64,000 nucleotides of DNA from Marsupella aquatica (GCA_973895155.1 OZ316891.1:4807708-4871707), one strand, 5' to 3'; positions 3,733 through 62,025 are shown, counted from the first letter of the stretch. Notes: generated by a model from the sequence alone, not told the origin. Numbers and translations: made by a program.

Positions 3733-3894
3733 AGGACTCTCCACGTTTGGCTTATTGACAAAATGAAAAGCAATGAGATCTTTTTGGGAGAAGGAAACTA
3801 TTTCAAGCTATTTAGGACTCTCCACTTTTGGCTTATTGGCAGAATGAAAAGCAATAAGATCTTTTTGGGAGAAGGAAACTACTTCAGGCTGTTT
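3733..3894. repeat. Tandem duplication, 81-bp unit x2
   Basis: AGGACTCTCCAC...GAAGGAAACTA starts at 3733 and 3814. Confidence 0.9.
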
Positions 3895-7714: not shown

Positions 7715-8071
7715 CAACTGGATTCTGTCAATCTAATCGAGGGAGGAGGAGGAGGAGGAGGAGGAGGAGAGAAAGGGCTGAACACGGTAGCATTCTGGGC
7801 GTTCAAGTCGTGCCTACTGATCGTCTTCGTGACATTGGCAATTGGATCGTTCCTTCTCTACTGGGCCACGTTTTGGGGCAACCGTCTGCTCTGCCTGGTG
7901 CTGGATGTGGTCCGGGGCGTGGAGGATCGGCTCGTTTGGGGCGTCTCGCAGACCGGAGCGATCGTCGAGAATTGCAGGCGAGCTCTGGAGAGGGTTTGGG
8001 GCATCGCAGTCGCCGTGAAGGACCAAATCTACGATGTTCTGGAGGGCGGTCGCTCTTTGCCTGCGCCTTGA
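7715..8071 (+). other. GC-rich stop-free frame lacking an ATG (poly-Gly plus a hydrophobic helix); possible exon or leader ORF
   Basis: Reads QLDSVNLIEG9EKGLNTVAFWAFKSCLLIVFVTLAIGSFLLYWATFWG...LPAP-stop. It follows an AG at 7713-7714 and precedes a donor CAG|GTGCGA at 8101. Confidence 0.25.
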
Positions 8072-8283
8072 TTAGAGCCGGCTGCAAATTCCGCCCCCAG
8101 GTGCGATTTGGTTTGGTTGGTTAATCGGTTGGTTGGCTCGCTGTCTGGCTGGTTGGCGTTTGATCTGCGTGAGGAGTCGCTTGGCATTCGCTGCGCTTTT
8201 ACGTCTTATGGGAAACGAAACCCTATTTCCTCTTCTGCACGCGGTTTTTGGGGGCTTTGGGGCATCTGATGGGGAATTGAGGG

Positions 8284-8573
8284 GGTCAAGGAGTTTCTAC
8301 GGGGTAATTCGGTGAGGTCTGGACTTGTGATGTGGTAGGTGGTGATTGTTGAAAGGAATGGATGCCAGTCTGCCGTCGAAGTTCCTGCGTTAGAGCAAGG
8401 GTTCAATTGAGTACCATTATTTTGAGCGTGAGAGGTCAAGGCTTTTCTTTGGGGTAATTCAGTGAGGTCTGGACTTGTGACGTGTAAATGGGTGATTGTT
8501 CGAAGGAATGGATGGCAGTCCGCCGTCGAGGTGCCGGCATTAGAGCAAGGGTTCAATTGAGTACCATTCTTTT
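8284..8573. repeat. Tandem duplication, 150-bp unit x2, with further degenerate copies to about 8770
   Basis: GGGGTAATTC at 8301 and 8451. TTAGAGCAAGGGTTCAATTGAGTACCATT is present in both units. Confidence 0.88.
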
Positions 8574-10302
8574 GGGCACCCGTCGGGGAATTGAGAAAGG
8601 TCTGGCCTGGACTCATGATGTGGCAGTGAACGAGAAGAGGGAGGGATGTTCTCCTGTTATTCGTGCGGGAATCTCTTGGGGAATTGTGTGAGGGGCCAGC
8701 CCAGAGGACTTATGATGTGGTGTTGGTGATGGTGGTTGACAGGAAGGGATGTTGGTCTGCCGCCCGGGATTCAGAATAATCAAGAAGGAATGAAACGAAG
8801 CGGGAGTTCAAAAACCAGGTGTGAGATCTTTCTTTGTGAAATTGATTGTCGGGCAGAATTTGGCTACGGTTTGCGAAGGTTGAATTTCTTCCCCGTTCAT
8901 CGAATTGAAAGAAGGGATTCCAGTTAGTGACACTCTTCGGTAGCAGAAACTGACCATTGAATTTCAAGTGGATGTTGAAAATTATGCCACGCTGGTGTCA
9001 TTCTCGTAGGGTTGAATCCCGCTACTCTCCTGATAGCGCGTACAGCCTTAAGGAAGCCGTAATAGCTGCGATATTATATTTTCCTCTGTCCACACTGGGC
9101 ATTGGCAGATTGAGTATATAAGGGATCCTTCAACGGTCGCAGTTTGTCTTATTTGTTATGAACAGCCTCCATGACGACATTAACATGCGCAACAAGGACA
9201 CGAATCGAGTCTTTAAGGGTTATTCTTTCCGCAAGAAGTTTCTTGTGGTGGGTTCGGTGCTACGATCAATTTGAAAAGGAAGCCAAACAAATTTGTTGAG
9301 CATTCCATACCTCTTTATATCTGTGAAAGTGAACAAGTTTACTCGTGGAAGGTTTTCGGAAGGTTTGAAGGGCTCTTGCGTGCATTCATGGGAAACTCGA
9401 GTGCGTTCTCCTAGCACTTGTCATTGAAGAGTGGCAGGTTTCCAATTACATGTAGCAATCTCTAGATTATTTCTGATTTCAGGACTGTTGATTCTTTCCG
9501 AAACACTTCTTCTGGCTAAGTTAAATTGTCCTGCTCCTTTTGGTTTGATGATGTGATGGTCATCGCGGCACCTTACCTGGTCGTCTGTCTTTGTCTCCGA
9601 CATTTGTTGCAAGGTAGATTCCAATTGATGCATCTGAGCTGGATGCCTGGTTTGCATTGTTGTTGGGTCTTTGACAGTAATGTTTGTGGTGGTTGTAGTG
9701 TCTTATGTGATTTTCTTACAAAATTCGAGGCCATTTAGGGATTCAGGGGCCCTTTATGTGTAACTGGACCCTTTTCCTGAATAGCTTGCTGTTTGCAGCA
9801 CAGTGCAACATGCCCCATGCGAAAGAGCTCTGTTTGGTGAATTGCTCGGGTTCAGCCCAATATGCAAGTCATCGGCCTGTCTTCACATCAAGGGTGTGGA
9901 CAGCCATTTGCGCTTATGGTTTGGTTGATGTGGAAGGTTCTCCTGGAACACTTCACCCATTCCACATTTAGGAACTTACTCGGAAGAAAAAGATAAGATC
10001 ATGTAAGAAATTATCTCACTAACATGTAAAATTTAGTGCTATCTCGGCCCTGAAACAGATTATGTGAGCTTATGGATATCGAATTCATAACCTTGCGGGT
10101 TAGTACTGATCTTCCAGTGTTTAGCACATTGCTGTTTGGCTGGTGGCGCTGTATGAGTATAATTGCACTGTGTTCATGTTTCGCGAGAGTTAAGTGATCC
10201 GAAGGACGTAGAAACGGAGTTGAGGTCGTTGTAAGTACCATCCATTCGCCACAAATTGTCCGTGTGTTGGGGCAGAAATTTTCAAAACAATATCTACAAG
10301 AT

Positions 10303-12769
10303 ATGAGCCAAAAGGTTGGGGAGGGGTTAGGCGTATGTTAGTATTCGTAGGGTTCCAGTACTCATTGCATTATTCGTACATATTAGCTCAGAATCTTGCA
10401 CCATCATGAGCTCAGTTCAAAATCATGTGCGACTTGGTTTCTGGAAGTGAAGGTTCCTGTAGTAATCGGAGAAGTAGGTCTTCGTTTTAACCATGACACA
10501 TGGTTCCGTCGACAAGGAAGCTTCTGTAGCCACAGGCTTTGTACTACGTGGGACGAGTTCAATGGTCTGATAAGCTTGTGTTTTTGTTGGATGGTGCAGA
10601 GTCCGGGTAGTGTGGGATGAGGACAACTTGGACTTTTTAGAGGCTAATAAAACTCCCAAACAGAAGATTAACGAACCTAAAACACCATATCATGCTCCTG
10701 AGTCGGAAGATGGTAAGGTTTCTTTTCAATTTTTGATCCTCTAAAATGTGAGTTTTACTTTCTTAAAGTTGACTGAGGTCTTGTACCCTTGCTCGTCTAG
10801 AGATAGGGACATTTCTCATAAAGAAATGTGGGTATGCAGGACTTGTAAGTCCAAGTCCCACTCATGACAGTGAAGCTATGGCGGATGCTGTCCATGCGGA
10901 GGCCATTCGTCGTGCTCTGATTGTAGCCTCCAACAGCGAAGCAGGCACTAGTCGACGGCGTGGCTCCGGCTGGACCTCTTCTGAGGACGAGGGAGATATA
11001 GAAGAGATGGACCATGATAATGAAGGTACATTCTTTGTGCAAGTCAAGAAAAGCAAGGCTTCCATAGGTGTACGATCGGCTCTTGATTAGTTTTGAGCCT
11101 ATATGAATAACTGAAGCTCTTGAATATGAGCAGCTTCTGGGTTATATTTTTACGATATGTCGTTAATCGTTGAAGTTTTTATTTGTCATTTTTCTAAGTT
11201 GGTATGATGTAGTAAGTAAAAGGGACCCAACACCAACAGTCCTGTCAGCTATCACATCACTTACCAGAATGAGGTACAATTACTAAAGAGGGTCTACTGC
11301 CAAGAGAAAGATAATCGCTGAACTCAATTTAGGTCCGGGTTAAAAACCCTAAACCCCTTCGTTGCTCATTTATGTCGGCTCATCCGTTTTCCCTTAGAAG
11401 ATAGCTTCTGTATTGTGTTCAGGTGCATCCAGCGTCCTACTTGCATCTGCATCAGCCGGCAAGCCATTTCAACTTGTCTCAGTAGCAATGTCTGTAATGG
11501 AAATGATTGCCAATCATATCCATGGTTGGTAAACTGAAAATTTGGCCAATTTTTGTTTGGTCTACTTTGCGACACCCTAGGACAAGATGCACCTGGGTCC
11601 TGACTGAAAATTTATCAAGAGCAGTGGACTGGTGGTTCCAACTTCTTGATGTAGCAAATCTTGAAAGCATTTAACTCGGTTATTGTCACATAAGCTACTG
11701 GCGGGAGACCAATGGAAAGGGAAATGAACAGAATTCTGGCTGAGAAGTCATGAAATCCGTTGATTACTTCTCGTTTCTGTTTCAGTGCCTTAAAAGCCAC
11801 CAGAAAATACGCTTCTTCTTGAAAGAGTCTGCCCTTAGTGTGGAAGGCTTGGATGAGCGTATCTGTAATGGATGGTATAAACTGCAGCAAGCATTTTACC
11901 GAATCGTGCAGTAGTTATTGCCTCATCCTTGTGCAGGATGAGAGTGCAGTTACCCAGTCTGTTGCATCCTATTATGCTGACCCTGACGTTGTTAGTCTTA
12001 GATTGTCTGAAACTTCTTCGCTTGGTTTTTATCACTCTGGTGGAAATGTACTTTTTATACTTGCAACAAAGAGAATATTCTGGGACACCTGAACGATATG
12101 GAAGACGGTATCTGATGTAATCCCATATCCTGGTCTTGCCAGTGAAAGACGGAGCTTCCAAGAAAGTGCAGCTCTTGATCTCTTTTTGGGGCCTTCGTAG
12201 AGATGAATATAGTTAGGACTAATCGTAAGTTGTGTTGTATATTCCTGGGCCTCTTCTTCTTATTGAGCCTTGATTGGTGTCTTCAGGCTTTGGAGAACTG
12301 TGCCTTGTCATAGGGACGTTTATAAAATGTGACAGCTGGCTTTGGGCATAAAGTGGTTTAGTATGAATATGACAGATATAAGATATCCCTTCTTTTCGGT
12401 TGATTGTCCACAGTTCACACTTGACGCAGAGTAAAAACTCGTGTACTCATTTATTTAGCAATCGGTCTGGAAACACTCATTGAAGGGCTTCTCTTTTTAC
12501 ACTCTGAACTGACGTGACTTGATTTAGGTCCAGACTCTAACGGCCGACGTATGAGTTTTGAGGAGCATCGGCGTGCGCACTATGATGAATACCGGAAGGC
12601 AAAAATGCTAGTTGGGCATGAGATGAGCGACGAGGAAGCTGAAATGACAGGAGTAGAAGGAGAGAGACATCAGCCAGGAGGCAGTTGTAGTAGACAATCT
12701 CAACAAGATCATGAGTCAAGCCTCAGCAGAAGTCTCGGTGGTATTGACCTACAAGCAGCTGAGATGTGA
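10303..12769 (+). CDS. I-2: Protein phosphatase 1 inhibitor-2 (I-2/IPP-2), about 187 aa, 4 coding exons
   Basis: Exons 10303-10325 (tentative, MSQKVGEG), 10600-10712, 10840-11025 and 12528-12769 join through GT-AG introns with matching phases (564 nt). The protein has the PP1-docking [15 protein letters not shown], an acidic GWTSSEDE tract and [14 protein letters not shown], all typical of plant I-2. Confidence 0.92.
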
Positions 12770-13921
12770 TTGATCTGTTGTGTTATGGCGAGCTATTCAT
12801 TGGAAGGTTTGCTACAGAAGATCATGCCTGCTGGAGATTCTGAACCGTTATTACCTTGGAACTCTCAATCAAGCGCTGTCTATTTAAAATACCTGTTCCA
12901 TTTTATAAGATTCGTCATTTTGTTTAGACAACTATGTACAAAACATTTTGGTTCTAATGTTACTGGGTTTTTTTTTTGTGAGTCTGTCTCATCTCCCTTT
13001 TGGTTGTCTGCCATATTCAGAGCCATTATCAGAGAAACCACAGTAAAGGACTACTCGAAGGGAACGTCAAAAGGATCGCTCCACTTGAAATTGCTGTTGT
13101 GGAAGATTCTTGCTGGTACCGGTATTGGTGGTGCTTGCGTCGTCTTTGCAGTAATGACAAAGATCAAAGGCTGACCATCCAAATCAGCAGGTTCTGGCAA
13201 GGTTGTAGTGGAGGGCGAATCTTGCAATAAATTGTTTTCCAGCCTATTTTGAGATTGGAAATCACAATCCAGCGCATTTGGCCATCTTCTGATGCGTATT
13301 AGTTTTTGCATCCTTTTGATCCCTAGCTCAGGCAAAATCTCGAGGTGGGAAAACTTTGGGTTCTGGATGAGTGCTGCGATGGTCAGTTTAGTCTTTTGAG
13401 CAGACAGCTTGACGATTGGAAAAGTCAAGAGATGATGAATCATCGAATGGAATCACGATAGGGAATTGTCTTTCTTGGTGAATGGAGAAGAATTACAGTA
13501 GAAGAACTGGATATTTTTTTGTCTTTTCAGAGGAACCTGTTTTGAGCAACCTGTATCTGCTAATAAAGGTCGTCATGCATTTTCACGTGTATCCGAAAGG
13601 ACACGATTAAATTGCATCCCATTATTTCACCACCCAAACGAATGTCGGCTAAGACAAACTACATCATATTTCGTTTTGGCTCCAGAATGCCAACTGGAGG
13701 GAGACTTGATAACGTTGGTGACCAAGTTTTGTTACCCATATCTGGAATTACTCTCAGTTTGGGACACCAGTGTAGGGCTCTAAAATTCTCATACCCTACC
13801 AAGAAACTGCACTATATTTCCGAATTTTGAAGATTGAATGTTGGGTATTTGCCCTTCATGGTTCTCCATATTAGGTAGACTGGTGGTTTCTAAGAGGGTG
13901 TTGCCAATGTTTCAAACCTGA

Positions 13922-13923
<2 letters not shown>

Positions 13924-13968
<45 letters not shown>
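13924..13968. repeat. (AG)n microsatellite
   Basis: Uninterrupted AG run of about 45 bp. Confidence 0.97.
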
Positions 13969-13971
<3 letters not shown>

Positions 13972-14941
13972 GGTGAATGGCCCATCTGTGGTGATTGAGG
14001 ACCTACTCGATCCCAAGGGTCACCTCATGAGGACCTATTTGATCCCAAGGGTCACCTCATGTGCATTTTTACTCTGGTGGGTAAATAGTGGCATTGGAGC
14101 TTGGAACGGCTTGGCCCTTTCAAGCCGGTCGGCTCACTTTGCAAGCAAGTCCAGCAGATGAGACAGGAAGACAACAGAGAAGGACACCTTAAATGTGTCA
14201 TCGATCACGATCGAAAGTTGGGAAAGTTTACGAGGAAGATGGCTAGCACTACACATGATGGCAAATATTCCACGCATTGAGGTTCTTGGATTCTTTGGAT
14301 GCTCGTGCATGTGGTGAGATCTTTGGTTTGATAAGAACGCTCCTTCATTTTGCATAGCAATTTCCTGTGATCGCAGTATTGAAATTCTTGAATACCTTGG
14401 CTGTACTTGCAAAAGCTTAAGTACTTTGTTTGGTCAGGGTATCTCCTTTACTACACTTCGGGCACCCGTCCCTGTGTCCAAAAGATGAAGCAAAGGTAGT
14501 GGTAGTCCTAGAAATATAGTGAGGTGTCCCCCAAAATGATTGACATCTGTTAGTTTCATAGCTAGTTTCATCGCGCTTCTTCTCTTGTAGTTGTTTAGCT
14601 GCATCCGCAGGTGACGGTCCTTTCTGTGGTATCCGACTGTCGAGAATGCCCAGACGGTTTGATCTAACACACATCTACTTTTCCGTTGTTCTAGTTTTTT
14701 CAGTTTCTTCCTTGATATTGATGATCATGCTTCCATTAGTTTACTGTTTGTTAGAATGGAAAGCCAAAATGGTTGGTGGAAGGAACTTAAAAACTCCTTG
14801 GGATCTTGTAACAGACTGCTCAAAAACTTACTTGTGGATCCCCTAACAGACTGCCTTGCCTTCAGAGTACGCAAATCCAGAAATTGTTGCTAAGTTTTCG
14901 ACTTGGTTCTCTGCCAATCTAGTAGTTAGGACTTCGTCACC

Positions 14942-15371
14942 ATGCCATCTTGGGAGCCACCGTACCCTACACCACACTGGCGTCTCCGGAGGTTCTTTTC
15001 TACCCCTACAAATTGGGAGCCTCCACGACCAGTCCTTGTTCACGGGCATACATATGCACTGACGGATGAGGTAAGAGCCAAATTCCCATCATCGGGACTA
15101 CATCTCATTCCAAGAGAAACACCAACGGCTCTCTTGGTACCAGAATTCACAGGCTACGAAGATCCCAGAGAGGCGGAAAAATGGATCACCGTGTTCTGCG
15201 AATGGACCATCATGTGCGGCATGTCTCAGTGCCTCTCCAAGGAGCTCCTCACCGAGTATATAAGGAGGGCTCTGCGCCACATACCTCACCACCATCTCAT
15301 GAAGAAAACTTTTGAATCATGGAAGGACCTTCTCCGAGACTTCTTTATAGATATGAATATCCGTGAATCTT
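14942..15371 (+). CDS. Exon 1 of a chimeric gene: retrotransposon Gag (capsid)-like domain
   Basis: ATG ORF containing PEFTGYEDPREAEKWITVF...ESWKDLLRDFF, which resembles the Ty3/Gypsy Gag F-x-G-x-x-D-P-x-E-A-x-x-W and W-x-x-L-x-x-x-F motifs. It ends at a strong donor T|GTAAGT (15372, phase 1). Confidence 0.6.
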
Positions 15372-15669
15372 GTAAGTATTTATTCTAGCTTCTCTCTCGG
15401 TCTCTCTCTATGTTCTGTCAAACTATGTCTTGGGTGACTCATGTGTACCATAGTTCCTAGATACAAGAGTATATAGCCTTGGCTTGTACTGTAGATGTTA
15501 TCTTCTGCATCTTCGATTATCAATATCCTTTTTGATAACGTCCTCTTGCAGTCTGACCCACGATGTTGCATGGAGCCAATTGTTTCTTGATGAGATTCAT
15601 TAATTGGCAGGAGAAGTATTCAAATGGTTACATTTAGGGCTGACTGATCTTGTGACTGTTCACTTGTAG

Positions 15670-16988
15670 TCTCAAGTTTTATGGCTTGGTACTGGTTGAA
15701 AAGAAAGGATGTTCCCATCATATGGTTCTCTCACACAGAGTTGAAGTTAGCAACAAACTACTTCGATTCCAATCTCATCGTAGGTGAGAGTGATAAGTCC
15801 AGACTCATTAAAGGGTACATGCCCAACAGAAGCCCTGTAGTGGTGAAGAGGCTCAAGAAGGGTGTTGGTACGTCCATTCAAAAAGTACTCAATGAAATCA
15901 ATGTCCATAGATACCTCACCAAATTGTACCATGGAGACGTCTGTCGTCTGCTGGGCTACTCCACCTGTCCGGAGGATCCGCTCCTCGTCTACGAATACAT
16001 GAACAATGGCAATCTGAGAGAGCACATGAACGAGAGATACGGAGACTATATCTGGCAAAACGCTCCTTGCAGGTTAGCGATACTGATTGACATTGCAAGC
16101 GGCATTGGAGAGCTTCATTACAACAGCAAAATGCCAGTCTATCACCGTGACATCCAACCATCCAACATTCTCCTAGACAACAACTATCGTGCCAAAATAT
16201 GTGATTTTGGCGACGCAGTGGTTGTTAAGAGTGAGGAAGACAGGCACAAACACCCAGTATGTGGCTCACTCGGGTACTTAGATCCAGTCTTCAGATCCAC
16301 AGGGCGGTGTGATGATAAGACGGATGTGTATAGCCTTGGAGTGATTATGCTTGAACTCGCCACAAGTTTAAAAGCATGGGATCCATTTCGGCAAACAAAG
16401 TATGGAATGAATCCTTTTCTCGTTGGGTTGATGATAGAACGGATGAAAGATGGGACTGCAGAAGAGTACTTGAGGCCAGGCAGGCCATACTACATTGGAA
16501 CGCCATACAACATGGAAGGGACTGCCATAGTGATAGAATTAGTTCGTGTGGCACTGTGGTGCTGTTGCCCAGTTCTACGACTGCGACCTCGTGCTGATCA
16601 AGTGGTGTCCGTGTTCCTTCAGATTCAATCCCGATGGGTCACCCCGGGACTGAGGGCCATTCAGCAGATCACAGAGGGAGGCATCATGCCCACCCTCTGT
16701 GGTCCTCTGGAAGCCATGCCTCTCGGTGACAAGAGACCTCCTGAGAAGGAGAGGCCTGTCTTCTTTATGAAGCTTCCCGAGTCAGCCGTAAAAATTGACC
16801 TCCCCCCTCAACCGAAAGCTCAGTCAAATTCACAAGCTCCTCAACCAAACAATCAACAACTCCCTGCTGGTAACAATCAATCTAAACCCCAAGCACCTGG
16901 AAAGAACAATCAACCAAAATCAACGCCACAAAATCAAACAAAAATGCCTGAAGGCAAACAATCCGGGAAGGAACAGCCAAAAAAGTAA
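15670..16988 (+). CDS. RLK/Pelle-family (WAK/LRK10L-like) kinase domain, atypical, with a Gln/Asn/Pro/Lys-rich tail; exon 2 of the chimera
   Basis: 435-aa ORF from 15681 with FSHTELKLATNYF, VVVKRL, LLVYEYMNNGNL, HRDIQPSNILLD, DFG, GSLGYLDP and DVYSLGV. The acceptor TTGTAG at 15664-15669 is in phase with the upstream exon. No signal peptide or transmembrane helix. Confidence 0.92.
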
Positions 16989-18349
16989 TTGCCAACTACA
17001 TACGCCAAAAATGAACCAAAAATTCAAGAAGGAAATAAAGCCGCCAAAGAGTGACCAATCCAACAGGCTAACATCCAGACCTCCTGGATATCAATCAGTA
17101 TTTGAATAAATCCTCAAGATCCCTCATTTTGTATCATTGTAACTTTGGCGTCATTCAAAGCAGATGATCATTGTAGATGTCATGGTTTGATCATTACATA
17201 TCTTTCCTTCTGATCAGAAAGTCTTTGCCATTGGCCAATCCTTTGATCATAAAGGCCTTCTCTTGGTGTGAACATGCCTTCTTAGGCTTCCAGTGGAAAT
17301 TGAAACCTGCATGGATGGCACGAAAAGATCTTTTCCATATATTAGATACGGAATTATCACTTTAGCCATCATTCCTTTCCTTTGCCTGGCATGCTGATGC
17401 CAAATCCCTTCAACTGCTTATCCAAGGGAGTAAGTTAGCCACGATCAGGAAGAGCATACCACTGAGTTGCTGTTGTTCGCGATGGTACACTGTGTAGGGA
17501 AGGATCCACAAGATGATGGTAAATAAAGGTCATTCATGATTTTGATGTAGAAGGGAAGCCCAAAGGATTTGCATCCCCATTTGCACTAATACTTGTGAAC
17601 TTGAAAGAGCTTAAGCTGGTCTCCCCAAAGTGCAGTGCTGGTTGCGCGGCTGCAATATTTCTATGACACAACTTTTGCAGCAGTAGAGCCTGAGAGTAAA
17701 CATGATTTGAATTAATATGTCCATTCATGTGTGCCTCACAAAGTGATTTATTGATGTGACGAAAGTGCTGAATATGCACTTTTGCTGCTGAGTTTGGTAA
17801 TGACTTGGCCTGGATTTAGATCCAGACTTTCCCAGATTAACATATTTGCTTCTGGCACCTGCACTCCTTATTCTCAGATTGTTATTTTTTTTGGGGGGGG
17901 GAGCTTTTTCTAGTTGGATGTTTTGGGCATTTTGTTTAAGCAAAAATAGTACTGCAAGCTCTTTCACTCCTTATTTGAGTGGAGTATTTTGTTGTTCTTT
18001 AGGCATTTTGTCATTTTCTTAGAAAAGAATAGAATCTAATCGAAATGGATAGGATGTAGGTGACCACTTCCTACACATTTTAAATAAAGAATGAGTACGT
18101 TTTGTAAAATTTGCCAAGAAGTTACTTAACCCAGAAAACTACCCATAAAACAGCAGGTGAGTGTTTCCTATTCTCCTCCACTTTTAAGCTTGTCCTGTTC
18201 TGAGCTCTGAGCTTCATTTGGGAAAGGCCATCTGGGACGCATAACACAGTTTCACCCTGGTTCTGAGCATGCTCCCACCATTTGATGTCATATCAAACAG
18301 GAACTCACCTTGAACTTGAATCTAAATGTTAACACACCCTCAACTGGAA

Positions 18350-22842: not shown

Positions 22843-23965
22843 TTACCGATATCGGTAAGCGTCATATGATCTGTAGTGGTGATCGCTGTAACTGGGGTAG
22901 TCATACGAGCTCGGATAGCTATAGCTGTGTTCGTAAGATGGACTCCGGCTATAGTAGTCGTAGTCGTAGGAACTCGACGAGGGACGATAATAGTCGTAAG
23001 CTCCAGTGCTATAGCTTGCATAATCGTGGGAGCTGTCCCAAAATTGGGCGCTCTTCTTCGCTTTTCGGACCTTGCGAAGTACTTTTTCGGGATTGACATA
23101 TCCCCTCACAATCACCCTCTGTCTCGGCATGTCAACTTCGACCGAATCAACGTCTGCACTCCACAAACAAAACTGTCAGACATCTTGAGTTATCCTTCAA
23201 CTGGTCACTGAACTCATTCGAGTATGCTAAAAATGAATGTCCTGGGACGCCATGCATTGCATGCCGTGGAGAAAAATCATGCGCGATGATCAAAAGCAAC
23301 TGCGAAAGGATCATTGCTCACCGTCAACATGCTTGAGCGATTTTCTCACTTTCTGTACACACTTCTCGCAGCACATGGATACGTGCAATACAACCGCACT
23401 CTGCAAGTCACAATGAAATAGTGTCAGCTGGAGCTTCCGAGTACCATGCGAAGTTTAACAAACATTCATGAACTATGTTGGCGAAAACCGTCAAGATAAA
23501 ATGTTGTCAGAGCTTATCTTACCTGGTGAGACCTGCCGAGGGAACCGTCGTAGAATTGGGAATTGTAGACCGACCGGCTGTAACCGAGGTCGGATTCCCT
23601 GTACACACTAACGGGCTCCTCGTAGGGAAGCTGCAAGAAGCAACAACGGGAGATGTTAATCCATAATCCTGCGTTTCCAGGAAACTGAACATCCAAACAC
23701 AATAGCAGCATTCTCAAACAGACTACCGCTTTTGGGCCACAGAAAGTGCGTCTGGTAAGTCGGGAATTTCAAATGCAGCAACAGACTTCAATCAACACGA
23801 TACAAATTCTACTGCCTCTCCGAAGTAGTAAGTTAGTGCACTCAGGCCTCCATTTAGCTCAAACGCCTTCTTTACTCCTCTACTGGCCATGGACATCAAT
23901 GAGCAAACTAAATGAACACAATACAGTTGGCGAGCTGGAAATTGACATACCTCCAAGTAAGACAT
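22843..23965 (-). CDS. Heavy-metal-associated (HMA) domain protein, about 170 aa, Tyr/Ser-rich C-terminus, no CaaX
   Basis: Exons 23965-23951 (MSYLE), 23630-23523, 23400-23322 (SAVVLHVSMCCEKCVQKVRKSL) and 23153-22843 (VDSVEVDMPRQRVIVRGYVNPEKVLRKV...). All introns are GT-AG and in phase. Confidence 0.9.
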
Positions 23966-39210: not shown

Positions 39211-39588
39211 GTGAGCTTTGTTAAAGGGTGGATGATCAAAAGTATAGCAAAGATTGAAAAATTTAGAGGGGTGCCAGATTAAATTCAAAATCTAAAGTAT
39301 ACAAGGGATGCACCTTGGTAAGACACATTGAATTAAAATACACAAGAAAAGAAGTTTGAATAAGGCAAAATACTGGAAGATGGATTCACCATATAGCAGT
39401 GAGCTTTGTTAAAGGGTGGATGATCAAAAGTATATCAAAGATTGAAAAATTTAGAGGGGTGCCAGATTAAATTCAAAATCTAAAGTATACAAGGGATGCA
39501 CCTTGGTAAAACAGATTGAATTAAAATACACAAGAAAAGAAGTTTCAATAAGACAAAATACTGGAAGATGGATTCACCATATAGCAGT
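39211..39588. repeat. Near-identical tandem duplication, 188-bp unit x2
   Basis: GTGAGCTTTGTTAAAGGGTGG starts at 39211 and 39399; only a few substitutions separate the copies. Confidence 0.95.
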
Positions 39589-56153: not shown

Positions 56154-57199
56154 CTGCGACAATGAACAAGAAGAATATTGCTTAAGGTATTCTGCAACAA
56201 TGAAGGAAGTCTGCAACCTGCATTCTCTGACGAGGGAAACCTTAATCAATACGAGAGAACCCCAATTCTCTAACGAGGGAAACCTTGAGCACTACTTGCG
56301 AGCCTTCTACCAGAGTGACCACCAGGCAAAAACTGGTTTGCAGGGATTTAAAATTGCCCATCTTCCACCTGTGACTGATAAACGTTCACCTTGAATCACG
56401 ACGTCCAATGCTATCGAAACAACTTCCAATCCAGTAAACTCCATTTCGATGCCATATTACTATACATCAAGGGGACCCGTCCAACCGTGGAAAGTCTGGA
56501 GACTGCTCCTTCCATGGTTGGAGTATTTTCTTGCCCGTCAGCATGCCGATTTGCCGACCCACCGGCCAGGATGTCTTCTTGTGGACTGGATCCCAATAGT
56601 GTCAGAGACTCAGATGAGCTGTGTTTCAGCTTTCGGTGTCTACTGGACCAAAATCTGCAAATATTTCGGTGTCTACTGGACCTTTTCCAGATTGACGGAT
56701 GCAATGGGTGCAATCGGGGCAATCCGATGGAGTCTACGGCCTGAATGGAAGAGCTCGTTCGCTAGTGGGAGAGCTCCACGAGCTTCACAGGACAGATTTT
56801 ACTCGGTTTTTTCTGACTCCGAGTTTATCCTCCACTGTACCGCACTACTAGTTTGTACCTTCAGCCACGTGACCTCCATGATCTGATTGCCATTCCGAAA
56901 AGGTCAGGTGTAGAAGCTCGTTCGAGGTAACAGTATCAGGCTGAGGCTCTGCAGTAGGCTTTAAGAAAAATAATTTTCTTGTCTTTCGTACCAAGTAGCA
57001 GCCTGGAGATCGGGGTGCTGGAAGAGTTAAGAGGAGCCGTTGAAGGTTTGAGGAAAGTTCGACCTGAAGAAATTCATATTGTTGGTCGTGCGTGCTACAT
57101 TTCGCCCAGAAGGACCAAGAAGTGAAGCTGCGGGCCGGAGCGTCTCTTTGCTACTCTACATTTTCTTTCTTTCTTTCTGCGAGAAGTCGAGAAGGAACA

Positions 57200-57726
57200 A
57201 TGAAATCGGTTGAGGTCCAAGCCAAGCTGCCGTCCGACCAAACTCCAGAGGCCAAAGCAGTGCGATCCAAACTGTTTGATCAGTTTGACCCAAATGGCAA
57301 TGGTTATCTCTCGTTAGCGGAAGTCGACAGGGGTGTTCGTGATGTTTTGGGCCTCGATGATGTGTTTCACGCCAAGGCTGCGATCATGAGAGCATTCGAA
57401 GCTTCCAAGAATGTTGGAAAGAGCAAAGCCAAGTACGGAGCCGATTTTGTGGAGCGCTCGGAGTTCCGCTTACTCCTCCTCTACCTCGGCAAATACTACG
57501 AGCTGTACGAGATGTTCGAATCGGTCGACAGCAGTGGCGACAAGAGAATCAACAAGGCAGAGTTCAAGACCGCTGCTGCTCATTTGGAGAAGGGGGAATC
57601 AAGGTCGAGAATGCTGACGCTGAGTTCGACAGAATCGATGCCAATAAGGGAGGATTCGTCCTTTTCGACGAGTTTGCCGACTGGGGACTCAAAAAGCACC
57701 TCCACCTTCAGGCTGACGAAGAGTAA
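57200..57726 (+). CDS. Flagellar calcium-binding protein (FCaBP/calflagin)-like EF-hand protein, with a 1-nt frameshift at 57592-57596
   Basis: LPSDQTPEAKAVRSKLFDQFDPNGNGYLSLAEV...RAF...ADFVERSEFRLLLLYL...ELYEMFESVDSSGD parallels trypanosomatid FCaBP as recalled. Adding one base in the G5 run restores (W)GIKVENADAEFDRIDANKGGFVLFDEFADWGLKKHL...stop (175 aa). Either an assembly error or a recent pseudogenisation. Confidence 0.85.
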
Positions 57727-57756
57727 GAATTCAGTATGTAGCTATAGATTCAGCTC

Positions 57757-58037
57757 CAGTAGAGATCATACAGCTTCCCGATAATGGCCCTTATGACATG
57801 GTTCTTAACCTGATCAAGCTGCTGTTGTGCCTGCTACTTGAGCTGTCCTGTTTAATGCACTTGCGCAACTTCCTTTCGGTCATTTGTTATGTACCTCTAG
57901 AATCTGCTCTAGTAGAGATCAGAACGCTTTCCAATTTGATCCATAGGACGTGGTTCTTACCCTGATCAAACCTTCTGGTCCTGAGTGCTACTTCTTGCGC
58001 TGTCATGTGCTATGGTCATGCGCAAATTCCTTTCAGT
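57757..58037. repeat. Diverged duplication of about 153 bp downstream of the FCaBP-like gene
   Basis: AGTAGAGATCA...TGGTTCTTA.CCTGATCAA...GCGCAA.TTCCTTTC.GT occurs twice. Confidence 0.75.
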
Positions 58038-59409: not shown

Positions 59410-62025
59410 CTAGTCACTTTGCGATGATCTCATCTTATATGTAAGAACTGGTCTTAACAAGGCTACAACAGTACAGAGATTAGCTGATACCAGATCTGCA
59501 ACAACACAAGCAGCATCCTTGTATGCCTCAGGTCTCTCTTCGTACAACAACGCCTTGTCGTCACATACTACACGAGACCCTAATGGAGTAGTAGTGAGGT
59601 CATTTGCGTTGGGATGGCGAACCTTCCCACCTATTCTCGCAGCAGAACGAGCTAGCACCCGCCCTGCACCATGTGCCAGAGACCAACCGCTGTTTGCAAA
59701 CTGCACTTGCTCAACTGGTTGCACAAGGTAGCTAAAAGCACCTCTGGAACCAGGAATCACTACTGGGCCTTTGTCTGAGGGTGCAGCGCCTTTCCTGTGT
59801 AGCCACAGACTCTTTGCACGAAAACTCTCGTCGGGAATCCCCACCTGAGGGAATCGGAGAACACCAATGTCAATTTCTTGCACACAAGTAAAGGCTTATC
59901 CCATTATCGCAAAGATATTCTATTAGACAAATCAGCAAACCTACATATTGCCATCCAGGGACCACAACAGAGGTTATGCTGCAGTTTCATCCAGACCATG
60001 AGAGAATATCTGGAAGCAGATATCTGTTATAATTGGGAACTTGGTTTTGAATAACGATCCTTACCTCCACAACGCTGTTGTGGGTGATGTCTAATAGAAT
60101 ATCTTTAGGACTGGCATTTAGCTGTTCTAAAAGTCTTGTAGCAATTACACGTCTGTTGACTTGTGCCCATTTGCAAGCCTGGTCATGTGCAGCAAGGTAA
60201 TCCTGGGCCTCTCGTGACTCCTGCATGCAGGAAGAGAGTTATGGTAAGAGCGGAACTGACGAATTGAAAAATGTCCGTCAAGGTTGCGAAACAACTTGCG
60301 CGTGTCCGAACTATGAAGGAGTTTGAACACGTCTAGAACACATCCCCATGATAAGAGAACGAAGACATCGACAGAACTGTTTACCACAGATATCCCCGCT
60401 GAGCCAGCTCGTTCAGTATGTGTTTTGAGAATGCTTTGCCCAAATCCTCGAGAACCAGAATGGACACAGAGATAAACATCTTCATAGTTCAGTCCAAGTT
60501 TCTGTGCTAGATCCGCATCTTCAATACTCTCTATAGTCTGCAGCATTTATCAATCATGGAAATCACATCAGCCATGCACGAGTCTTGTTCTCAAGGATAG
60601 GTCAACTTGTTACAGCTGAAGAATATGAGGATACCTGCAACTCTGCAAAATGATTGCCCCTCCCTACAGTCCCTAGGGAATCTCCGTCGAAAGGAGTTGC
60701 CTGGACCCCAGCCAGGGCTAATTCACCTGGAAAATCTCACACAAATGGACATGCCCATCAGGGACTGAGAGAACACGGATTTTGACAATGCAAGAGCCAT
60801 AAGGGTAACATAACGATACATGTAAGAAAGGAAGAGTACATCACCTGCAGTATCACCATCCCATGGTCCCTCCAGCTGCAAACTGGCAGCCCAGCGGTCT
60901 AATGTGCGAGATTTGCTACCTGCAGAAGCTTTTAAGGATGTCTTTGCTAGTAGCATGCCACAACCGATGTCTGAGCCAACGAGAGTTGGATAGATGATTC
61001 CCTGAGTTGCAATTGTAGCCCCAATTGGACACGAAGCTCCTACATGCAAGTCCGGGAGTCCCACACCGAGTACCACGCCAGGTAATGCAGCTGCCCATTT
61101 CAGCTGCTTCAGTGCCTGTACATCCACAAAGCTATCCTTTGCTAGCACTATGACTTGCGCAGTTGCACTATCATTACCGTGCAGCTGATCTGACATCCAT
61201 CACATACCCAGTGATCAGGAAGGTACATTGCTAAGGTGATGCAGCACTTACTTCAAAGATGGCATTGAGGGACTATTTGATGCAGAGGATTTCGAAAACT
61301 GGATTGTTCTTGTTCCAATGGACAGATTGTAAGTCAAACCGGAGTCAAGAACAAATTCGGATTCATACTACCTAGCTCTTCCAAGACATCAATTCCACAA
61401 GCCAACTTCTGACATTGTGTCTGTCTATGTTCGCAACTTTCACTCCTGTCTGGCCGACCTTCTCTCAGAAAAACTTCTACTCAGAAAAGTTGCCCCCATT
61501 CAATCCACAGAGTCTTTCGTATTGAAACTGCACATCCAAATGAAAACCTCACAAGGAAATATTTAGAGTGAATTTTAGCAGTGGTATCCTGTTATTCTTG
61601 ACCTTACGAACACAGACCCCTCATTTATATTGCAAGCAAACTAGCAACGAGGAAGAAGGGGGATGAGTAGGTATCTCGGGCAGTGTACCTGGAACTTTAT
61701 CCATCACACAAGGGTCCCCTGCAGAAACGTACAGAGTTCCACCTAACCTAATTTGGGCCTCAGCGTGATCCTGGTCTCCTGCAGAAAGCTCCTCTCCTCT
61801 CGTGTTGAAGAGCCTCAAGTTCGTCAGAGGGATTCGCAATTTGTTGGCAGCCGCTTGTTGAACTTCCATCAGTACAGAGGAAACCATCCCGCCGCTGCCT
61901 GACGCACCCGCAACGACAGTTTTTGAATCTGTACGCTTCACATTGCGAACCAGCTTCAAAGCTATCTTCTCCTTCGAGGCCGGAGCAGAGAACGTGACTG
62001 GATTTGCATTTCTCTCCTCCTCCAT
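59410..62025 (-). CDS. rtcB: RtcB-family RNA ligase, release-factor-H-coupled (RtcB2-like) subtype, with an N-terminal DCX/ubiquitin-like domain, about 505 aa, 6 exons
   Basis: Exons 62025-61689, 61189-60845, 60726-60635, 60537-60385, 60220-60065 and 59844-59410 (1518 nt, GT-AG, phases consistent). Motifs: GLPDLHVG, YPTLVGSDIGCGM, LGTVGRGNHFAELQ, VHSGSRG, DITHN, WLHRKGAAP, IPGSRG, SLAHGAGR, LYEERPEAYK, LRPVLTYK. Confidence 0.93.

Follow-up and report, generated by a model that had tools for sequence, protein, structure and literature searches.

The gene found at 14942-16988 on the plus strand of the window (that is, the whole 64,000-nucleotide stretch of Marsupella aquatica DNA analyzed here) is best explained as a liverwort host gene in which an RLK/Pelle kinase carries a captured Gag N-lobe that would act as an interaction module controlling the kinase, a reading to which we assign a probability of roughly 60%. 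The fusion of capsid N-lobe and kinase is likely old, common to liverworts and captured once, in an early liverwort. The features of the gene are listed in Table 1.

Table 1 Features of the predicted capsid-kinase gene (coordinates counted from the first nucleotide of the window).
Feature	Position	Strand	Description
Exon 1	14942..15371	+	143 codons and one further base; leader rich in Pro with duplicated WEPP, then capsid-like domain
Leader, residues 1-37	14942..15052	+	Pro-rich, low confidence (pLDDT about 45 over residues 1-30)
Predicted retrotransposon-type capsid N-lobe, residues 38-141	15053..15364	+	AF2 model, ESM neighbours
Intron (predicted)	15372..15669	+	298 nt, GT-AG, phase 1, GTAAGT...TTGTAG, 39% GC
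CTGAC branch-like site	15640-15644	+	Inside predicted intron
Exon 2	15670..16988	+	Linker helix, kinase domain, tail, stop codon
F-x-x-W-Y helix, residues 147-151	15678..15692	+	Conserved
RLK/Pelle kinase domain, about residues 163-462	15726..16625	+	Pfam Pkinase 2e-28
Tail, residues 501-582	16740..16985	+	Low-complexity, P/Q/K/N-rich; sequence not conserved among orthologues

An in-frame TAG at 14927-14929 precedes the ATG of exon 1. As the sequence-only reading had proposed, 143 codons and a single T are followed by the donor GTAAGT at 15372, and the acceptor TTGTAG, with the CTGAC motif upstream, restores the frame: the joined exons form a coding sequence of 1749 nt, or 582 amino acids, with no internal stop. 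When the 15 AG dinucleotides between 15500 and 15760 were scanned, only the acceptor ending at 15669 yielded the 582-residue protein; the AG at 15750 gave 555 residues, and the remaining 13 of 15 led to a stop by residue 163. The joined protein is 65% identical to the M. polymorpha isoform P0012 over residues 25-500, with 7 gap positions, and its alignment to Mp3g00080 runs residue for residue through the exon junction; the collinearity with Mp3g00080 and its Riccia orthologues bears out the in-frame fusion of exon 1 to the kinase that had been claimed. The two annotated isoforms of Mp3g00080 (598 and 599 amino acids) differ by one alanine exactly at the equivalent junction, a difference pointing to a tandem acceptor observed at the transcript level. 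Four unspliced, read-through proteins of the family (P0006, P0014, P0087 and P0009) diverge from the family alignment at the junction, at residues that fit a phase-1 GT donor. Because these four proteins leave the alignment there, we infer, from protein ends rather than from DNA, that other subfamilies have the intron at the same position and in the same phase and that it is ancestral. The gene is thus likely spliced from two exons, the chimera being well supported by homology and its splicing at this locus being predicted.

In the AlphaFold model of the window protein (mean pLDDT 70; 80-89 over residues 71-140), the N-terminal domain consists of a YAL strand, a P-x-F-T-G strand and helices at residues 75-91, 96-110 and 127-137. 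Compared with 48,161 chains, this model had as its first match residues 41-121 of the dArc1 N-lobe (Z 6.1, 3.1 Å, 76 aligned residues), a score to be read with the caveat of the search tool that a Z below 8 can be reached through a common helical arrangement without kinship; retrotransposon and retroviral capsids made up 9 of the 12 top rows and 22 of 50 rows, and the unrelated DusB scored Z 5.1. A second model, that of the M. polymorpha paralogue MARPO_0024s0045, whose domain is 32% identical to that of the window (pLDDT 85), likewise placed dArc1 (residues 47-121) first among the 48,161 chains (Z 6.0, 2.5 Å, 70 aligned residues). The only three chains to reach a Z of at least 5 with this model were dArc1, twice, and a Copia capsid N-lobe, capsids accounting for 16 of 50 rows. 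Short strands are found in both models at the YAL and pre-PxFTG segments, as are three long helices, with a lower-confidence loop at the position of the third Arc helix (the core of the Arc/Ty3 N-lobe has four). The two strands and the buried aromatics are the best-conserved residues of the domain; in the window protein F69 and W81 are 12 residues apart, a spacing equal to that of the buried F52 and F64 of dArc1 in the accessible part of PMC6938703.

The search of the ESM Atlas is independent of these structures. For the window domain, the three nearest neighbours (0.93-0.94) bear no family name, and the named ones, at 0.90-0.91, are DUF7041, DUF4939, DUF1759 and Retrotrans_gag. All named neighbours of the paralogue belong to DUF4939, DUF7041, Retrotrans_gag, Ty3_capsid and DUF1759, at only 0.76-0.83, and the shared features numbered fewer than 170 in both searches. 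DUF7041, DUF4939 and DUF1759 are Gag-related families.

Foldseek, which the sequence-only reading had suggested as a check, returned no match at E≤0.001 against PDB or BFVD; realignment of the 137 candidates retrieved with the paralogue model brought human Arc N-lobes to the top three places (Z 5.2, 4.6 and 4.5, the next being 2.7). In the PDB lists, the best TM-scores normalised to the query belonged to an Arc N-lobe at rank 3 (TMq 0.41) and of dArc1 at rank 12 (TMq 0.34). A Pfam scan of exon 1 gave no match at E≤1, including to Retrotrans_gag, Ty3_capsid and DUF4939; HMM profiles built from 8 and 13 family sequences recovered no capsid among PDB sequences, only chance matches, as did a PDB search with the exon 1 sequence. 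A complex prediction with four copies of the N-lobe scored 0.00, the alignment being unused and the fold uncertain. The Ty3/Gypsy Gag-like motifs and the domesticated capsid domain that had been claimed find support in the models and the ESM neighbours, at a level below Pfam and profile detection, and as an N-lobe alone. Taken together, the two independent models and the language-model neighbours lend the capsid origin support of moderate strength, and the domain very probably derives from Gag. The donor was likely of the Ty3/Gypsy class, to which the nearest structures trace back; this assignment goes no further than likely because Copia N-lobes come within some 1-2 Z units of them.

No C-lobe with a major homology region follows the N-lobe. 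The FS motif of the kinase begins about 25 residues past the last N-lobe helix, which leaves room for one helix only and hence none for a C-lobe or nucleocapsid. In agreement with the earlier claim that neither pol nor a pair of LTRs is recognisable nearby, 69 of the 74 window ORFs of at least 100 amino acids showed no transposon Pfam domain (the five set aside being the gene's own two and three antisense ORFs inside the gene), and no long direct-repeat pair flanks the gene within 1-40000. Equally absent are the usual ectodomain and transmembrane helix, as had been noticed: the highest 19-residue Kyte-Doolittle mean ahead of the kinase is 0.99 in the window protein and 0.61-1.26 across the 15 family members compared, none of which (0/15) has a transmembrane segment before the kinase, and no GUB_WAK or EGF Pfam domain was matched in the family proteins. 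Because there is no transmembrane helix, the kinase is likely cytoplasmic.

What occupies the space between the two domains is the F-x-x-W-Y helix, whose distance to the kinase FS motif is identical in all 15 members and which lies 19 residues beyond the last N-lobe tryptophan in 11 of them. Going by the end offsets of the structural alignments (the aligner left the motif itself unsuperposed), it comes to lie no more than about one residue from the aromatic face of the first C-lobe helix of dArc1, a face described in the accessible part of PMC6938703 as Y126, Y129 and M130; the i/i+3/i+4 spacing of the motif is generic for helices. Its derivation from a WAK transmembrane segment was considered and is not supported, the end of that segment lying about 45 residues before FS in four WAK-like proteins against 12 here.

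The kinase is of the plant receptor-like type. Its closest solved relatives include BRI1, BAK1, BIK1 and PBL2, then IRAK4, and all 56 matches of a kinase sequence search carry kinase Pfam domains, those with names being plant RLK-type or generic kinases; Mp3g00080 is the best match and the best non-liverwort single-kinase matches are WAK-like. The window kinase keeps the beta-3 lysine (K203), the alpha-C glutamate (E219), the HRD aspartate (D304) and the DFG motif at 322-324 (D322), and has a degenerate Gly loop, HRDxQ in place of HRDxK and no subdomain VIII glutamate. Across the family, HRD is present in 15 of 15 members, DFG in 14 and GxGxxG in only 7, and the subdomain VIII glutamate is lost in all 15. 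Kinase activity may be low, the Gly loop and subdomain VIII being degenerate.

Relatives with the same architecture, a search for which had been suggested, were found in Marchantia, Riccia and Calypogeia. Exon 1 alone retrieved three longer proteins, all of them liverwort kinases with 62-67% identity (from Riccia fluitans, Mp3g00080 and from R. sorocarpa). When 1.84 billion representatives were searched by HMMER with a single sequence, 7 matches were obtained: five are family members, including two from the leafy liverwort Calypogeia fissa, and the other two, a CD22-like protein of a shark and a repeat protein without a name, were set aside as products of their repeats. The profile search, in which 7995 candidates were scored, gave 11 matches, all liverwort kinases with the same N-terminus. 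Five named liverwort species have proteins annotated with the joined architecture, and three copies were found in M. polymorpha, MARPO_0024s0045 and MARPO_0049s0006 being the paralogues found. The named matches included none from mosses, hornworts, algae or vascular plants, and scans of metagenome and viral contigs brought up no relative; the 7995 candidates scored in the profile search are too few to show absence outside liverworts. The candidate chimera of the sequence-only reading is well supported by homology as a fusion, probably spliced, and is not peculiar to this locus.

In a quick, midpoint-rooted IQ-TREE analysis of the kinase, the 15 members (a set leaving out near-duplicates and partial proteins) fell on one side of a branch with SH-aLRT 100, opposite 24 other RLK kinases, all of them drawn from the kinase-search matches. 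Three main groups emerge alike from the N-domain tree and from the kinase tree, and the window protein is placed with Mp3g00080 and the Riccia orthologues. The fusion predates the split between Marchantiopsida and Jungermanniopsida, which is roughly 400 million years old. P0005 and P0015 of R. sorocarpa (R1sor_027425 and R1sor_027430), which are near-identical, have close locus tags and include one truncated kinase, are likely a local duplication. For the M. polymorpha members P0004, P0080 and P0082, one and the same longest contig is on record (30,125,287 bases), and Riccia fluitans P0003, P0079 and the P0083 cluster likewise share one longest contig, hinting at paralogues on one chromosome.

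Exon 1 is under purifying selection. It differs at 9 sites between contigs of related haplotypes, and the selection test that had been called for, applied to the 8 sites that can be classified, gave 7 synonymous changes and 1 replacement (pN/pS 0.04, binomial p 1.8e-4). The ninth site falls in a net loss of 3 nt beside the donor in the second haplotype, where the frame is kept. Synonymous and replacement changes stood at 11:1 in the kinase and 6:3 in the tail among the 40 of 83 rows listed. Judged by sequence identity, the N-domain is conserved about as much as the kinase, with 62-65% identity to orthologues (kinase 61-68%) and 31-39% to paralogues (kinase 37-42%). Within 14400-17400, runs X3 and X4 each hold two sequence versions at the exon 1 donor and in several non-coding stretches, one equal to the window and the other diverged, which may stand for a second haplotype, a homoeologue or a mixed sample. 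None of the four runs containing this stretch is listed as RNA, and their contigs show no exon-exon joint, a result that does not bear on expression.

The leader is the more variable part. By alignment, that of Marchantia and Riccia is longer than that of the window protein, and other subfamilies have none; a search of 8001-15100 turned up neither an upstream exon for the longer Marchantia leader nor a remnant of it. Two WEPP motifs are present in the window leader (14951-14962 and 15014-15025), and the orthologues have a single copy in a leader 42 residues longer.

Elsewhere in the window, a multi-exon gene for an RtcB tRNA-splicing ligase lies on the minus strand at 59413-61199, where three ORFs match Pfam RtcB. 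A 238-residue ORF on the plus strand at 57068-57784 encodes an EF-hand domain of the FCaBP (flagellar calcium-binding) type (E 3e-30) that could, as a guess, relate to motile sperm. A weak heavy-metal-associated (HMA) domain at 22846-23175 on the minus strand (E 7e-4) is below the Pfam cut-off. A (GA)n microsatellite is located at 13923-13969, about 1 kb upstream of the capsid-kinase gene, and tandem duplications of 81, 144 and 188 nt are found at 3733-3894, 8284-8577 and 39211-39586.

Published expression data cover two of the M. polymorpha genes. Among the entries listed in supplementary file 11 of PMC9946954, as far as that file was available, Mp3g00080 is up-regulated in cold, cold+salt, heat and heat+mannitol, and Mp3g20270 is down in six conditions. 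Mp3g20270 also has a log2FC of -3.6 in the 6,944-row table of differentially expressed genes of PMC11436993, in which the TMV comparison was judged from file order; Mp3g00080 is not in that TMV table. Gene identifiers of the family were absent from the main texts searched and from the supplements of PMC6290024 and PMC11906373. In the database records covered here, the family proteins are named only kinases or hypothetical, and the N-domain has no Pfam name. No published description of a capsid-kinase fusion in plants was found in a search that left subscription journals and bioRxiv supplements outside. Domesticated half-capsids and kinase fusions are each known, and a conserved plant family that unites the two appears to be undescribed.

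Several other explanations were weighed against the preferred one. That exon 1 is a stray transposon fragment lying upstream of an independent kinase gene, with no joint translation, deserves next to no credence: the joined architecture is annotated in five liverwort species, the second haplotype keeps its frame despite the net 3-nt loss at the donor, and exon 1 is under purifying selection. More substantial, though still unlikely, is the idea that the fusion is real and the N-domain a small helical bundle of another origin that has converged on the capsid N-lobe. This would account for a best Z of 6.1 that unrelated helical folds approach to about 1 unit, for the want of a significant Foldseek or profile match and for the one capsid helix that is unmodelled. 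It sits less easily with the finding that models of sequences only 32% identical share both their top match and the capsid region, with the share of capsids among the 48,161 chains (22 of 50 and 16 of 50 rows) and with the structure-independent language-model search, in which the named families were of Gag type only.

The N-lobe might instead, as the sequence-only reading had also suggested, be an integrated decoy or sensor that co-assembles with the Gag of an active retrotransposon, or binds an effector directed against it, its clustering then activating the kinase as an alarm for transposons or pathogens. Such a role would be in keeping with the regulation of full-length PEG10 by the N-lobe-only RTL8, as reported in the accessible part of PMC10516033, with the rise of the orthologue Mp3g00080 in heat and cold (PMC9946954, in the part available), with the log2FC of -3.6 of Mp3g20270 in TMV infection (PMC11436993) and with the presence of Gag domains among NLR fusions (PMC4759884, likewise in part). 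We nonetheless hold it to be quite unlikely, because purifying selection and stable orthology prevail and the domain is too diverged for a sequence match to Gag. The one-to-one orthology between Marchantia and Riccia and the three M. polymorpha copies betray no arms-race turnover, and neither rapid turnover nor diversifying selection is apparent (exon 1 pN/pS 0.04). Mp3g00080 is missing from the TMV table, and the 7 HMMER and 11 profile-search matches include no Gag protein, so that surfaces for co-assembly have likely diverged far. The corresponding scenario, in which an early-liverwort N-lobe would co-assemble with the Gag of stress-activated retrotransposons, or be clustered by it, and signal through the RLK/Pelle kinase as a capsid-sensing alarm directed at the plant's own retroelements, appears to us just as doubtful. 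Another proposal is that the N-lobe caps the kinase intramolecularly through the F-x-x-W-Y helix, stabilising or autoinhibiting it, or that the protein is a scaffold of low activity whose N-lobe has no external ligand. The fixed WY-to-FS distance (15 of 15), the 19 residues from tryptophan to helix in 11 of 15 members, the invariance of the N-domain's own N-terminal strands, the loss of the subdomain VIII glutamate in 15 of 15 and the GxGxxG motif in only 7 of 15 would all suit it; set against this, HRD (15 of 15) and DFG (14 of 15) are retained, as are the beta-3 lysine and alpha-C glutamate of the window protein, and the proposal overlaps with the preferred explanation. As a separate account it strikes us as decidedly improbable.

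Under the preferred reading, that of a captured N-lobe controlling a host kinase, exonisation at the phase-1 intron would have replaced the receptor ectodomain and membrane anchor with a capsid N-lobe. The cleft of the N-lobe would be a docking switch closed by the conserved YAL and PxFTG strands; a partner might open or cluster the N-lobe and so bring kinases together, and the clustered kinases could trans-phosphorylate one another in signalling linked to stress or to development. A module for docking or clustering is proposed because the cleft of dArc1 and Arc binds a strand or peptides and because the YAL and PxFTG segments and the aromatics are the best conserved. Lacking a C-lobe, the N-lobe would not assemble into a capsid.

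The domestication of capsids has been well studied in animals (Arc, PEG10, PNMA, RTL8) and in yeast (Drt2 is among the structural matches). If the fold assignment is true, the liverwort family would show a retrotransposon half-capsid in place of the ectodomain of a receptor kinase, an arrangement both old and conserved, and the question is directly testable since M. polymorpha has three expressed or annotated members. Of these, Mp3g00080 (MARPO_0007s0010) is the orthologue, and MARPO_0024s0045 (MpRLK-Pelle_WAK_LRK10L-3) and Mp3g20270/MARPO_0049s0006 (MpRLK-Pelle_WAK_LRK10L-7) are paralogues; all have the same architecture of N-domain and kinase, and the window protein differs from the Marchantia members by its shorter leader and longer P/Q/K/N tail. 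The WAK/LRK10L-type database label carried by two of them hides the missing ectodomain.

Among known systems, the window domain is most like the Ty3/Gypsy-derived N-lobe of Arc and dArc1, with which it shares an N-terminal strand and a helical core. According to the accessible parts of PMC6938703 and PMC8121366, the hydrophobic cleft of the dArc1 N-lobe is filled by the protein's own N-terminal strand, the same cleft of mammalian Arc binds partner peptides, and isolated dArc lobes oligomerise while the mammalian lobes are monomers. The window N-lobe differs in its low identity to Arc and dArc1 (12-21%), in one helix seemingly replaced by a loop and in the fused kinase; Arc, moreover, keeps its C-lobe and forms capsids, whereas the window domain, known here from sequence and models, lacks one. 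An N-lobe-only domestication such as this one is also described, in the part of PMC10516033 available, for mammalian LDOC1 and RTL8/FAM127 (Pfam DUF4939), half-capsid genes that are of independent origin and for which that part describes no catalytic domain. In the ESM searches, DUF4939/FAM127 clusters rank with the closest neighbours that bear a name. The SCAN domain of vertebrate zinc-finger proteins is another capsid-derived interaction module in multidomain host proteins, and comes from the capsid C-terminal domain and is fused to DNA-binding fingers rather than to a kinase. With WAK/WAKL proteins and receptor-like cytoplasmic kinases the family shares an RLK/Pelle kinase with the FSxxEL motif; in contrast to WAK/WAKL, it lacks GUB_WAK and EGF domains as well as any signal peptide-like or transmembrane segment, and in the tree with the 24 comparison kinases it forms a clade of its own. 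The kinase-fusion resistance proteins of cereals join a kinase to an unusual domain, and kinase-fusion and NLR integrated-domain proteins are typically young and variable. The window protein resembles these immune fusions in having an unusual domain joined, Gag-type domains being found among NLR fusions in the accessible part of PMC4759884, and differs from them in that its fusion is old, low-copy and under purifying selection.
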